Below are positions 386 to 8,092 of a stretch of 27,458 nt of DNA, in pieces. Numbering within the stretch: position 1 is the stretch's first letter; every line of letters begins with the position of its first letter. Origin of the DNA: a virus (taxonomy: Duplodnaviria; Heunggongvirae; Uroviricota; Caudoviricetes); the IMG/VR virus record IMGVR_UViG_2703718852_000003, positions 1 through 27,458 of that record; one strand, written 5' to 3'. Both the position numbers and the translations under genes were made by a program. The notes below the pieces were generated by a model. The model ran no database searches. It was not told the origin of the DNA and saw nothing but the letters and a program-made list of their open reading frames with translations.

Positions 386-1609
386 ATGGCGCTGTCTGAT
401 GCGTGGTTGCGTTCAGTCGTTGGAAAGGAACGTGATAAGGTTTTGGTTAAATCCGATCGTGATGGTCTGTCTGTCAGAGTATCACCGAAAGGTCGCGTAG
501 TGTTCCAATATCGTTATCAATGGGCAGGGAAAGGTGAGCGTCTTGATATCGGAACTTACCCGGCAACTGGATTAAAAGAGGCCAGAGAAGAAGTTATTCG
601 TCTCCGTGGTGAACTTGAGTCAAACCGTAATCCACGATTTGTCAAGCAGGCTGAAAAACGAAAAGCTACTGAAGCCATGACGGTAGAGTCTGTGATCCGT
701 GCCTGGTATGAAGCATATTGTGTAAAAAATAAAAAAGGTTCTGAACAGATACTCCGCTCGTTTGAGCTGCACCTGTTCTCTAAAATCGGGAATATCCCTC
801 ACGATGCAGCTACATTGCATGATTGGTTAGAAGTCCTGGAGCCTCTTAGCACTAAGACTCCAGCAATAGCAGACCGATTGCTAATTAACGCAAAGCAGGC
901 CCATGTCTGGGCGTATAAGAGAAAGCTCATTGAAACTCGCCCGCTGTCGGATATCACGGGTAAAGATATGGATATCCGTAAAGGTCAGAAGAAACGGTTT
1001 CTGACACATGATGAAATTAAAATCCTTTATGCTGCGATCGATGGTTCTCGAATGGTTCCTAAATACCGGGCCTTCATTAAGCTATTGCTGCATTTTGGCT
1101 GCCGTAGTTCAGAGCTAATTACTGCCAGGGTGGACGATTTTGATTTCATTAATAAGGTATGGACTGTACCACCAGAACGACATAAGACTGGGGAGATAAC
1201 AGGCGAACCGCTAAAGAGGCCCATTATTGAACCGGTGGAGGAGCTTATAAAGAACGCTATCTCTATGAACAATGGTTCCGATATGCTTTTTACTAAGGAA
1301 GGAAGCAGGGAACCCGTTGGTCGAACATCATTGCAGTCGCTGCCTTACAATTTAATGCAGTACGCATGGCGGAGTTTGGGGTATCAATTCCCTCATTGGT
1401 CTCTTCATGATTTGAGGCGAACAGCACGAACAAACTTTTCTGATCTTACTGCTCCTCATATTGCAGAAATAATGCTCGGCCATAAACTGCCAGGGGTTTG
1501 GCAGGTTTATGACAAGAGCGATTATCTAGAAGAACAGCGTAAAGCCTACCAGGCGTGGTGGGAGAGGGTTGAATCGATCATTACTTGTGCTAGCTCAGAC
1601 CCCAACTGA
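386..1609 (+). CDS. int: Tyrosine-type site-specific integrase (phage integrase family)
   Basis: 407 aa ORF with AGGTGA ribosome-binding site; C-terminal catalytic region HDLRRTARTNFSDL ... LGHKLPGVWQVYDKSDY matches the R-H-R-Y tyrosine recombinase signature; lies at the prophage end next to an excisionase. Confidence 0.9.
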   Translation: MALSDAWLRSVVGKERDKVLVKSDRDGLSVRVSPKGRVVFQYRYQWAGKGERLDIGTYPATGLKEAREEVIRLRGELESNRNPRFVKQAEKRKATEAMTVESVIRAWYEAYCVKNKKGSEQILRSFELHLFSKIGNIPHDAATLHDWLEVLEPLSTKTPAIADRLLINAKQAHVWAYKRKLIETRPLSDITGKDMDIRKGQKKRFLTHDEIKILYAAIDGSRMVPKYRAFIKLLLHFGCRSSELITARVDDFDFINKVWTVPPERHKTGEITGEPLKRPIIEPVEELIKNAISMNNGSDMLFTKEGSREPVGRTSLQSLPYNLMQYAWRSLGYQFPHWSLHDLRRTARTNFSDLTAPHIAEIMLGHKLPGVWQVYDKSDYLEEQRKAYQAWWERVESIITCASSDPN

Positions 1610-5426: not shown

Positions 5427-5789
5427 TTAATGACCTGCTGCGCGGAGTTTTCCGTCAGGTTCACCGGCAAGAGTCAGTAATTGTCCCTGGTCTTCCTGCA
5501 GAATAGTCAGGCGACCACCGCGATTGACATACATCGGCGTTTCGGTGGTGTCTTCTTCGGAAATTTTCCCGCGGTTAGTCGGGCGAACATATGAGAGTTT
5601 GTGTTTGATTTTCACACGGTTCTCATCAAATGGTTCGATTTCCAGGTTGAGTGAGACCTTACCTTTGGTTTTCGTGTTCATCACACCGGAAGCGACTTCA
5701 CTGAGAACTGCGCCGATTTTGGTTTCAAATACGCCGCCGTCCAGCTCCCCGATAAATGCCTGCACATCAGTACTGCGTTCGCTAGCCAT
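5427..5789 (-). CDS. YfdP-like small early protein
   Basis: Start placed at the internal ATG (MASERSTDV...) preceded by AGGAG; the 77-codon upstream extension in the ORF track is Cys/Pro-rich and overlaps strong RNA stem-loops, so it is probably leader, not coding. Confidence 0.55.
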   Translation of the reverse strand: MASERSTDVQAFIGELDGGVFETKIGAVLSEVASGVMNTKTKGKVSLNLEIEPFDENRVKIKHKLSYVRPTNRGKISEEDTTETPMYVNRGGRLTILQEDQGQLLTLAGEPDGKLRAAGH

Positions 5790-5837
5790 TTTGCTGCTCC
5801 TCATCATATCGACCCTGTAAGGTCGGTTAGTTTCTCC

Positions 5838-5972
5838 ACAAAACAGAGAAGAACACCTGCGGTGGCAGCCGCCCGGATGGATTGGGTTATGAGCCCGTCG
5901 TCCGGTGATGCTCTTCTCTGTTTTGTAAAAAGAGCGGTACCAGCCGGAAGCAAGGGTACAAACTGGTACCGC
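5838..5972 (-). repeat. Two adjacent strong inverted repeats in the leader of the leftward early operon: 15-bp perfect stem (5838-5852 with 5912-5926) and 10-bp perfect stem (5934-5943 with 5963-5972)
   Basis: Perfect reverse-complement arms read directly from the sequence; located in a roughly 700-bp GC-rich ORF-poor region between the operator sites and the first early-left gene. Confidence 0.5.
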
Positions 5973-6397
5973 CAAAGCAGTGGCTGTTGTGGTGGGGTTG
6001 TCACTCAGGCGTATGGTCAACCTGACAATCCGGTGTCCTCAACGGGGAAAGAGTAACCCCGCCATACTTACCGCCGCGCCATTTCGCGGATTACCACAAC
6101 GCTGAGAGCACTTAGCCAGTTACGGCACCACACTTTGTCGCGGCTCCATAAATGCCCTCATCGTTGCACCCTGGTCTCTTCCCAGGCGTCAAACCGAATC
6201 GCCACGCTGGTTAGGCGTCTTATCAGCATCATCATTGACTTGCACATTCCGGCTACCTGGTTTGTTTGCCCGAGCAAGGAGTGGATTGTCCCCTTTAACG
6301 TCCCCAGACCGCTAACGACGCATGTGCCATACGCCGTGTTACAACCAAATTTTGTTAGTACCTTGTTTGTTTGTCTGGAAAGAAAGATAAAATGAAG

Positions 6398-6436
6398 TTG
6401 CGCATTATGCAAGTGTTTTTGTTGCGAGATATGCAA
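6398..6436. promoter_or_regulatory. Putative leftward operator pair: TTGCGCATTATGCAA (6398-6412) and TTGCGAGATATGCAA (6422-6436)
   Basis: Same TTGCG-N-GCAA pattern recurs in the cI-cro intergenic region (TTGCGCGTTAAGCAA at 7205-7219); position fits an OL/pL region downstream of the cI terminator. Confidence 0.4.
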
Positions 6437-6450
6437 TTTAAAGGGTAATG

Positions 6451-6470
6451 AAAAGCCACCTTTGGGTGGC
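6451..6470 (-). terminator. Rho-independent terminator downstream of the repressor gene
   Basis: GCCACC-CAAA-GGTGGC hairpin followed by TTTT on the minus strand, about 20 bp after the cI stop. Confidence 0.5.
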
Positions 6471-6491
6471 TAATTGATGAGGAGGTAAGGG

Positions 6492-7184
6492 TTAATTGTG
6501 TCGCTTAAGGGTTTGTGACTGGCTGATTAAGACCTTTCCAAAGACCATAAACCGGTGTTCATTTTCGCTGGTAATTCCCCATTCACGGTAAATCTGGTTA
6601 TCAGAAATCACCAGTAGTTTGTCAGGTATCATTTGCAGTCGTTTGACATAAATTTTATCATCAAAACCAAATACATAGATACCATCTCCATCAAACTGAT
6701 TGATACTGACATCAACGAAGATGAGATCTCCTGGCTCAATGGTTGGACACATACTGTCCCCACGAACGTTGATAACTTTAATGTGATTGGCTGGCCGTCC
6801 GCCAAACATCGATACAGCATTATCAGTTCTGTATTCAATGGCATGAATCACATCAATGACATCACCGCCCTGGATAAGGCCATTTCCCGCACTGGCACTG
6901 ACATCCAGCATTTCAATACGGAATACATCCTTCACCTGCGCAACATCCTCACTAATACTGTTTTTACATACAGTATTACTTTTGACGTCTGAGGTAAAGA
7001 GATCAGCAATATCAACACCTAAGCTCCTGGCAATATTACTCAGGGCTTGTTCAGTGAATTGTTTCTGCTTACCTGTTTCCAGGCGTGAGATATTCGCCGC
7101 ATCCACTCCTATTGCTTCAGCGAGATCGGCGATTTTCATGTTCTTCGCCTGGCGAAGTTGTCTGACTCGGTTTCCTATGTTCAT
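6492..7184 (-). CDS. cI: CI-like prophage repressor (XRE-type helix-turn-helix plus S24 LexA-like self-cleaving peptidase domain)
   Basis: N-terminal helix-turn-helix (VRQLRQAKNMKIADLAEAIGVDAANISRLETGK); C-terminal S24 catalytic dyad GDSM ... KRL; divergent from a cro-like gene. Confidence 0.9.
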   Translation of the reverse strand: MNIGNRVRQLRQAKNMKIADLAEAIGVDAANISRLETGKQKQFTEQALSNIARSLGVDIADLFTSDVKSNTVCKNSISEDVAQVKDVFRIEMLDVSASAGNGLIQGGDVIDVIHAIEYRTDNAVSMFGGRPANHIKVINVRGDSMCPTIEPGDLIFVDVSINQFDGDGIYVFGFDDKIYVKRLQMIPDKLLVISDNQIYREWGITSENEHRFMVFGKVLISQSQTLKRHN

Positions 7185-7281: not shown

Positions 7282-7542
7282 ATGCAATCACCATTACGGA
7301 ATGTGCGTAAGGCGCACGGATTTACTTTGCAGCATGTTGCTGCTGGCGTTCAGGTCAATCCAGCGACGCTGAGTCGTATTGAAAGACTGGAACAAATTCC
7401 ATCTATCGATCTTGCAGAACGTCTGGCCAATTTTTTTAAGGGTGAAATCAGCGAAATGCAGATTCTTTATCCGGCACGTTTTCAATCTAGCCAAAACCAG
7501 AATGGGTTTAAACCACAGGAACAGGAGGTAAGCCGTGGGTAA
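7282..7542 (+). CDS. cro: Cro-like helix-turn-helix regulator
   Basis: 86 aa, helix-turn-helix (FTLQHVAAGVQVNPATLSRIERLEQIPSIDLAERLA); first gene of the rightward operon, divergent from cI. Confidence 0.7.
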   Translation: MQSPLRNVRKAHGFTLQHVAAGVQVNPATLSRIERLEQIPSIDLAERLANFFKGEISEMQILYPARFQSSQNQNGFKPQEQEVSRG

Positions 7543-8092
7543 TCATCACTGGAAAGTGGAAAAACAGCCTGAGTGGTACGTGAAAGCTGTCAGAAAAACT
7601 ATCGCGGCGTTGCCGGGGGGTTACGCTGAAGCTGCTGAGTGGCTGGATGTAACAGAGAACGCATTATTTAACCGCCTTCGTGCCGATGGCGATCAGATTT
7701 TCCCGCTGGGATGGGCAATGATTTTACAACGTGCTGGTGGCACTCACTTCATTGCCGACGCTGTGGCGCAGTCTGCAAATGGCGTCTTTGTGTCTCTTCC
7801 TGACGTCGAGGATGTGGACAATGCCGATATTAACCAGCGTTTACTGGAAGTCATTGAACAGATCGGCAGTTATTCAAAACAGATTCGTTCGGCAATCGAA
7901 GACGGTGTAGTGGAACCGCATGAGAAGACAGCAATTAACGACGAGCTGTACCTCTCAATTTCGAAGCTGCAGGAGCATGCAGCACTTGTCTACAAAATTT
8001 TTTGCGTTTCAGAAAGTAATGACGCCCGCGAGTGTGCAGCTCCGGGCGTCGTGGCGTCGATTGCTTCTGGTTGTGGAGAAACTAACGCATGA
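7535..8092 (+). CDS. YmfL-like putative regulatory protein (cII-position gene, as in e14-type prophages)
   Basis: 185 aa, GTG start with AGGAGG ribosome-binding site; resemblance to YmfL is from memory. Confidence 0.55.

Follow-up and report, generated by a model that had tools for sequence, protein, structure and literature searches.

DicF of the Escherichia coli K-12 prophage Qin is among the oldest known bacterial small RNAs (sRNAs), and has been treated as a single family confined to defective prophages. The 53-nt DicF is an RNase E product of a 190-nt species with an RNase III-dependent 5' end (PMC10448788), and RNase III cleavage of dicBF read-through transcripts generates the 3' end of a 72-nt DicF form (PMC5069750). 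Here we describe a related locus in the virus record IMGVR_UViG_2703718852_000003 (27,458 nt; this whole stretch is referred to below as the window), an SfV/mEp460-like lambdoid prophage of E. coli. Positions 5790-6380 are a GC-rich untranslated leader (~590-600 nt) of the leftward PL operon, which lies between the cI-like repressor gene with the OL operators and the first early-left gene, and consists, on the leftward transcript, of four modules: D, C, an sRNA/terminator slot, and X (Table 1). With a probability of roughly 0.6, this leader is a string of RNA modules built on the plan of the Qin dicF locus, where partial termination and RNase processing would yield an sRNA, and read-through would supply the early genes.

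The wide occurrence of dicF-related sequences in prophages is already known: P1 records label a "dicF-like region", and such sequences are reportedly widespread in prophages, judging from the title of a 1994 paper by Faubladier and Bouché. Small RNAs also originate from tRNA transcripts, e.g., 3'ETS-leuZ and the RtT RNA of the tyrT operon. Relative to Rfam and the literature searched, three features are new: a variant with a short seed or none; an organization in which conserved flanks enclose a slot for a tRNA or any of several sRNA bodies; and structures of modules C, D, and X that are backed by covariation. Our data suggest a widespread modular system, to which the dicF locus belongs, with a conserved precursor domain, a slot for at least eight bodies (or a tRNA), and a conserved terminator. 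This system is found in functional phages (mEp460, cdtI, SfII, Stx2c phages, and P1) and in several genera.

Comparison with dicF and tRNA-linked loci

The window and Qin share an early operon under a cI-like repressor, an upstream precursor domain (~120 nt, 89-93% identity), a homologous terminator, and a long hairpin between the terminator and the next gene. They differ upstream, where the window has no ydfABC and the leader runs from PL straight into module D, and downstream, where the next gene is YfdP-like in the window and dicB in Qin. The precursor domain is module C: window positions 5978-6100 are 89% identical to Qin over 123 nt, and the 107-nt core (5994-6100), matching Qin between ydfC and dicB, is 93.5% identical. 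Rfam places DicF directly beside this match (locus L002, positions 2924-2975, 76.7 bits at a threshold of 48). An 18-mer from module C was used to fetch 120 IMG/VR loci, and local BLAST against them outlines a sharply bounded module (window 5978/5986-6100); a second IMG/VR scan with another module D anchor retrieved nearly the same loci, adding no diversity. Parts of the leader match 4,770 of 5,426 complete E. coli genomes, and 999 of these 5,426, about one fifth, carry it nearly full-length. In Qin, a 190-nt precursor sharing the 3' end of DicF would begin 0-6 nt ahead of the module C closing helix; therefore, by length, module C corresponds to the 5' part of pre-DicF.

Downstream of module C, the slot retains UUUGGCGGUAcCAGUUU and the terminator. 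The alignment with DicF (A7) shows the shared pattern UUUGGCGGUAxCAGUUU...CCGCyCUUUUU, with window GGCGGUACCAG...CUGGUACCGC and the subsequent UCUUUUU aligned to the GGCGG...CCGCC terminator and U-run of DicF. The window hairpin differs from that of DicF in having a perfect stem, folding with 10-12 bp, and a different 19-nt loop. On the minus strand, UCUUUUU comes directly after the 10-bp stem, which marks this hairpin as an intrinsic terminator; the terminator scan overlooked it because the 19-nt loop exceeds the 8 nt of the scan. The preliminary description of this region, made from the sequence alone, had suggested that the early-left transcript might rely on a cis-acting RNA element or carry a small RNA. 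The second guess fits best, the 10-bp stem being the terminator of a DicF-type slot preceded by the Qin-like segment.

In the 100 nt after module C, the 120 IMG/VR loci contain at least eight variants. About three quarters of the loci have canonical DicF and about twenty are of the window's type, and all variants end in a GGCGG...CCGCC hairpin followed by U's. This arrangement of conserved flanks around a variable slot recurs in Citrobacter, Trabulsiella, Erwinia, Izhakiella, Salmonella phages, e14, and P1. A different seed, AUUGCUGUGUGUAGUCUUGGCGG, is conserved in K-12 e14, Salmonella phage F1055, Trabulsiella, Izhakiella, and one IMG/VR contig.

What is annotated in e14 as the gene ymfH (locus L149, positions 2502-2813) includes the closing helix, hairpin X, and a DicF-type body in which the seed UGCUGUGUGUAGUC is conserved, together with its terminator. 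This ORF (open reading frame) is probably spurious, in which case the K-12 annotation of a gene here would be wrong, and upstream of xisE, e14 probably has an unannotated sRNA of the DicF family. A literature search on ymfH and e14 sRNAs yielded nothing relevant.

Following the slot, element X provides about 20 bp of continuous double-stranded RNA, which makes it a putative RNase III substrate, and X may be the RNase III site of read-through transcripts. At the equivalent place in Qin, after the DicF terminator and before dicB, there is also a long inverted repeat, TGAATTTTGTGATG/CATCACAAAATTCA, of unrelated sequence. The presence of a long hairpin after the terminator, both here and in Qin, agrees with the 3' end of the 72-nt DicF being made by RNase III (PMC5069750).

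Modules of the leader also occur next to tRNA genes. In a podophage-like prophage that matches window positions 6094-6337 at 83% identity, module D is followed, in the RNA sense, by the same flank GGCUAAGUGCUCUCAGCGUU and then by the acceptor stem (GUGGCAU...) of tRNA-Arg(UCU); this stem starts at precisely the point where, in the window, the module C closing helix starts. A 42-nt spacer after this tRNA leads to a similar terminator, GGCGGU...ACCGCC-CUUUUUAC. Hence a tRNA unit can have a DicF-type body as its trailer, and the place of module C is that of a tRNA. Among 120 further IMG/VR loci fetched with a 21-mer from module D, 64 are of the window type (D, C, sRNA slot), in 24 module D is followed by tRNA-Arg, about 25 are of the P1 type (tRNA-Ile2, D, ban or another cassette), and a few are different. 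The likeness to tRNA-derived sRNAs would consist in the 5' flank, the kind of terminator, and module D, which surround tRNA-Arg(UCU) in related prophages, and in the apparently cloverleaf-like fold of module C in the tRNA slot. In contrast to such systems, the window contains no tRNA genes according to ARAGORN and no match to the Rfam tRNA model up to E = 10, while genuine tRNA-Arg genes were detected in control loci L001 and L127; nor does the window match the Rfam models of RtT or 3'ETS-leuZ.

In the ban operon of P1 (NC_005856), the C1-controlled ban promoter is followed by the module C homologue ("dicF-like region"; 75%, with 75-81% over P1/P7), a short body with its own intrinsic terminator, tRNA-Asn, tRNA-Thr, the tci genes, tRNA-Ile2, module D (79%), and ban. 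The differences from the window are that C and D are more than 2 kb apart, with tRNA and tci genes between them, that D stands between tRNA-Ile2 and ban, and that the P1 copy of module C has no closing helix.

The terminator after the short P1 body is GCCCAUCUUCGGGUGGGC with six U's (locus L130, positions 2441-2470); given this body and terminator, P1 probably produces its own small RNA from the ban promoter, although none is annotated. In the same locus, at about 100-140, right after module D and just upstream of a Shine-Dalgarno sequence and AUG apparently starting ban, we observe AUUUUCUGGUGAUGAC, resembling the DicF seed UUUCUGGUGACG.

AgvB and AsxR resemble the window slot in that these short RNAs of prophages combine a conserved terminator part at the 3' end with variable 5' parts and occupy a fixed lambdoid position, but they are encoded downstream of PR' in the late region and have unrelated sequences (PMC4104026); the Rfam AgvB/AsxR models have no match in the window.

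Structure and covariation of the leader RNA

The preliminary description had seen a GC-rich, ORF-poor leader with strong stem-loops, a candidate structured RNA, and this picture holds. GC content is 53-57% across 5700-6300, compared to 40-47% on either side. The 601-nt leftward RNA folds with -232 kcal/mol (z = -4.5, none of 20 shuffles being as good), and the hairpin at 5832-5932, with -51.2 kcal/mol (z = -7.8, none of 200 shuffles). All stem-loops listed there were recovered: a perfect 15-bp core within the 25-nt inverted repeat 5838-5862/5902-5926 (84% complementary), the perfect 10-bp repeat 5934-5943/5963-5972, and the GC hairpins at 6040-6090, which are CGGGG/CCCCG and CCGCG/CGCGG, both inside module C. 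The 15-bp stem had been delimited too narrowly, as it comprises about 20 continuous pairs when G-U is counted. Folding combined with covariance analysis, proposed as a check, revealed compensatory base changes across genera in three separate modules, D, C, and X, with the observed covariation reached by none of 500 shuffles.

For module D, the alignment of 11 diverse sequences (A4) supports five helices, with 94.7% of cells paired and ten pairs changing on both sides (26 cells); none of 500 shuffles equals this, and slid controls pair at 35-47%. Pairing is 94.7% for the leftward RNA versus 80.5% for the opposite strand, which assigns the structure to leftward transcription. The helices are separated by near-invariant blocks (9-21 nt; UGGCACAUG, AGCGGUCUGG, CAGGUAGCCGGAAUGUGCAAG, GGCGAUUCGGU), as well as GGAAGAG, and identity to the Citrobacter copy is 86%. 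The family is absent from Rfam 15 and we found no mention of it in the searched literature. The leader thus holds at least one well-supported RNA motif, module D, without a match in Rfam 15. There is a substantial chance that it represents a new RNA class.

For module C, 13 diverse sequences including P1, Erwinia, and Izhakiella (A6) support four helices (Table 1), one of them a pseudoknot, with 98.3% of cells paired and six pairs changing on both sides; again, none of 500 shuffles equals this, and slid controls pair at 28-57%. A fifth hairpin is swapped outright in some loci (CGGGG/CCCCG, CUGGGG/CUCCAG, CAGGUG/CACCUG). Folded alone, module C forms a four-way junction resembling a cloverleaf.

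Across the 18 diverse sequences aligned for element X (A5), which come from Escherichia, Citrobacter, Salmonella, Erwinia, and Izhakiella, pairing in the long stem amounts to 97.2%, with several positions showing compensatory changes, e.g., A-U to C-G and G-C to A-U. Its junction contains a hairpin similar to an anticodon arm, GGG-CUCAUAA-CCC (5897-5885), with a loop in the form of a tRNA anticodon loop and the anticodon CAU, and a second hairpin of variable length. An X-like core, GACGGGCUCAUAAUCC, is also found, unannotated, in the late region of Klebsiella phage GZ7 (locus L127, positions 2480-2551) after tRNA-Asn and tRNA-Arg, where it is closed by a different 6-bp stem and lacks the long stem of X.

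A scan for known RNA families was also proposed in the preliminary description: Rfam 15, searched at the gathering threshold and at permissive E-values, recognized none of D, C, X, and the slot. The permissive matches (eukaryotic miRNA, snoRNA, and lncRNA families, one Caulobacter sRNA, and the hairpin ribozyme) were rejected as chance ones. A retron non-coding RNA was rejected, as no reverse transcriptase gene is seen nearby, and so was an attP core, since a long distance separates the tRNA-like piece from the integrase gene. Pas sRNAs come from late/structural regions and are a different element (PMC13192938).

Explanations of the leader

According to the dicF-like explanation, once the cI-like repressor leaves OL, polymerase would transcribe D, C, and a short sRNA body, and the intrinsic terminator at 5934-5972 with its U-run would halt a part of the polymerases. 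RNase III cleavage at the module C closing helix and trimming by RNase E would convert the terminated RNA into a possibly stable sRNA of ~55-70 nt that ends in the terminator hairpin and is predicted to be of the Hfq-binding type. For such a seedless RNA, either the short 5' tail or the 19-nt loop rich in C and U would be the likely contact surface with any target. Polymerases reading through would reach the early genes, and RNase III cleavage at X would separate the RNA part from the mRNA, as in dicBF. Since a part of the polymerases would stop and the rest read through, the terminator would double as an attenuator limiting the expression of early-left genes. Early-left operons often carry cell-division inhibitors, such as lambda kil, Rac kilR, Qin dicB, and dicF, and the dicBF model fits this background. 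The locus offers candidate early-expressed phage sRNAs, and also bears on how N-less phages pass a terminator preceding the early-left genes.

Several observations weigh against this explanation. The window slot lacks ~25 nt of DicF including its seed, and the Rfam DicF model (RF00039) has no match in the window at the gathering threshold or at E up to 10. The version of AUUGCUGUGUGUAGUCUUGGCGG shared by the window and Citrobacter is shorter by about 10-12 nt, and the window slot may be a decayed or seedless copy. RNAduplex predictions against the ftsZ leader, compared with shuffled controls, carry no weight either way, since even the genuine DicF control reached only z = -1.4. As most copies are 97-99% identical, the covariation rests on few divergent lineages. 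Finally, the dicF analogy does not account for module D, which makes up a third of the leader.

The least probable of the alternatives, and a very improbable one, is that the leader ORFs are translated into small proteins, e.g., that the 66-aa minus-strand ORF, the counterpart of the annotated ymfH in e14, is a genuine gene. Several public records do annotate hypothetical proteins here, but none of the five candidate ORFs has a Pfam match; substitutions relative to the Citrobacter-type homologues (81-86% identity) are distributed evenly over the three codon positions, e.g., 11/10/11; four of the five ORFs are interrupted there by stops or frameshifts; and the X-loop insertions differ in length by 22 and 25 nt, neither being a multiple of three. 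Therefore the leader is not protein-coding, and coding is excluded for practical purposes. ORF 5862-6056 on the plus strand stays open in the Citrobacter-type homologues, with the same even spread of substitutions, and the ORFs would have to traverse the terminator and the 20-bp hairpin. A conserved gene in homologous prophages, named in the preliminary description as evidence that would refute a structured RNA, was not found. In F1055, Trabulsiella, Erwinia, and Izhakiella, the terminator loop is enlarged and contains a Shine-Dalgarno sequence and AUG of a mini-ORF (MFYRGTA...) running through the 3' half of the terminator stem, which could link translation to termination in these relatives; it is shifted in frame in Izhakiella, stopped after 11 codons in Trabulsiella, and absent from the window. 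A higher, if still low, probability is assigned to cis-acting antitermination as in HK022 put, one of the initial suggestions, by which D and/or C would bind polymerase and carry it past the 5934-5972 and later terminators, replacing N. It retains some weight because all early-left genes are separated from PL by a strong terminator and no N-like protein is seen among the early-left ORFs by Pfam (the matches being DUF2303, DUF551, YfbR-like, or nothing), as the preliminary description had also concluded. As in HK022, a structured RNA directly follows PL: module D, conserved, covarying, and with near-invariant blocks, begins ~30 nt after the predicted start. The same leader occupies the same place in cdtI, mEp460, SfII, and F1055, with no N annotated between the repressor and the early-left genes. 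Linker sequence GGCUAAGUGCUCUCAGC, conserved before both module C and tRNA-Arg, holds a boxA-like UGCUCUC, a weak resemblance found by eye, and the only one to the lambda N/nut system, from which the window differs in having no N-like gene. Still, blastn of the leader against the HK022 PL-nun interval yielded only chance matches of 9-21 nt, and while HK022 has both putL and putR, the window modules are single-copy, with no second copy downstream of PR in the window self-comparison. The put element consists of two stems, whereas the leader is much larger and modular, with module D alone having ~190 nt and at least five helices. The modules are also found in unrelated positions: module D of P1 follows the dicF-like terminator, far from the promoter, and that of podophage-like prophages precedes a tRNA. 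Moreover, the homologous Qin region has already been explained as an sRNA precursor (PMC10448788).

Somewhat more plausible than antitermination, yet doubtful, is an evolutionary remnant, i.e., a decayed cluster of tRNAs and sRNAs kept as mosaic filler, where only the terminator-attenuator functions and no stable RNA is made. Module C takes exactly the place that tRNA-Arg has in related loci, behind the same 5' flank; X has a tRNA-like anticodon arm, and the same core follows tRNA-Arg in GZ7; the seed that relatives have is missing; and the module boundaries are sharp, as expected from recombination. All of this agrees with such an origin. However, a pure relic conflicts with the covariation, as the helices of D, C, and X are kept across genera by compensatory changes; in addition, long near-invariant blocks persist in P1 and in lambdoid and podophage-like prophages, and the short-seed form is retained in both Escherichia and Citrobacter. 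A broader and more tentative extension of the dicF-like explanation, which we regard as possible, would consider the leader a "non-coding RNA operon" of exchangeable RNA cassettes shuffled with tRNA genes, with D as a new class and C as a tRNA-shaped handle releasing DicF-type sRNAs. If so, D would be common to P1-like plasmid prophages, lambdoid, and podophage-like prophages, and could modify polymerase or termination in cis or direct RNA processing, while C would be a cloverleaf-like, pseudoknotted processing handle for sRNAs with interchangeable seeds.

Genomic setting and additional observations

The leader is 100% identical in one RefSeq E. coli chromosome. Its assignment to the leftward early operon stands as initially described, with the correction that the first gene begins at 5789 and not at 5790. 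The further early-left genes encode DUF2303/YfdQ, a YfbR-like protein, and two DUF551 proteins. The OL-like operators of the preliminary description are indeed present as a 16-nt repeat, and a related site, TTGCG-N6-GCAT, can be read in the OR region. Phages with a different repressor (cdtI, Stx2c phages, 2H10, Ayreon) are 98-99% identical to the window until 6356-6365 and then diverge; therefore, the immunity-specific promoter is placed just right of that point. Leftward transcription would start near 6377, with the -35 and -10 hexamers of PL assigned by eye, as the promoter scan did not call them.

Table 1. Positions of the leader modules, their helices, and surrounding features in the window
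Feature	Position	Strand	Description
Integrase	386-1609		on the strand opposite to the early-left genes
First early-left gene, YfdP-like	5427-5789	-	ORF list; AUG 5789-5787; without Pfam family
Leader 3' end	5789-5837	-	conserved GGAGAAACUAAC, small hairpin 5811-5828, Shine-Dalgarno GAGGAG, AUG
Element X	5838-5926	-	20-bp stem 5926-5907/5857-5838 enclosing a three-way junction
DicF-type sRNA slot	5926-5985	-	5' segment AGCCACUGCUUU, terminator hairpin, UCUUUUU
Slot terminator hairpin	5972-5963/5943-5934	-	GCGGUACCAG/CUGGUACCGC, 19-nt C/U-rich loop
Module C	5986-6100	-	cloverleaf-like
Module C helix 1, closing	6100-6093/5993-5986	-	GUUGUGGU/ACCACAAC
Module C helix 2, hairpin			CCGCG/CGCGG
Module C helix 3, 9 bp			GGAUUGUCA/UGACAACCC; Izhakiella UAACCA/UGGUUA, P1 UUGCCA/UGGCAA
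Module C helix 4, pseudoknot			GUAUGG/CCAUAC; P1 GCAUGG/CCAUGC
Linker D to C	6101-6149	-	ends in conserved GGCUAAGUGCUCUCAGC just 5' of the closing helix
Module D	about 6150-6345	-	~190-nt structured RNA, at least 5 helices
PL-type promoter (predicted)	6384-6436, including operators	-	-35 TTGCAT 6407-6412, 17-nt spacer, -10 TATCTT 6384-6389
OL-like operators, 16-nt direct repeat	6397-6412 and 6421-6436	-	repeat search
Intrinsic terminator of the cI-like gene	6454-6471	-	terminator scan; upstream of PL, outside the leader RNA
cI-type repressor	6492-7184	-	helix-turn-helix and Peptidase_S24 Pfam matches
Cro-like helix-turn-helix protein	7282-7542		Pfam scan
CII-like protein	7535-8092		Pfam scan

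The sRNA svsR of a related lambdoid prophage has been mapped to the cI 3' end, on the positive strand of the NC-SV genome map (PMC12803456). Given this location and the opposite strand, it is a different element from the leader; the comparable 3' end of the cI-like gene in the window is at about 6492-6570.

The 16-nt sequence TTGTGGAGAAACTAAC occurs twice in the window, at 8071-8086 on the plus strand and at 5826-5841 on the minus strand. The plus-strand copy overlaps the end of the cII-like gene and ends 2 nt before ATG 8089, and thus resembles a ribosome-binding site. The copy in the leader comes after hairpin X, with no start codon at that distance.

One more recurring non-coding module begins with GGUGAAUGCGGCU(C/G)AGCGCACGCGG and is found in Qin (L002, positions 2780-2900), in e14 (L149, positions 2760-2820), and after module D in loci L163 and L212. 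Its position varies by prophage, and in e14 it replaces the interior of module C.

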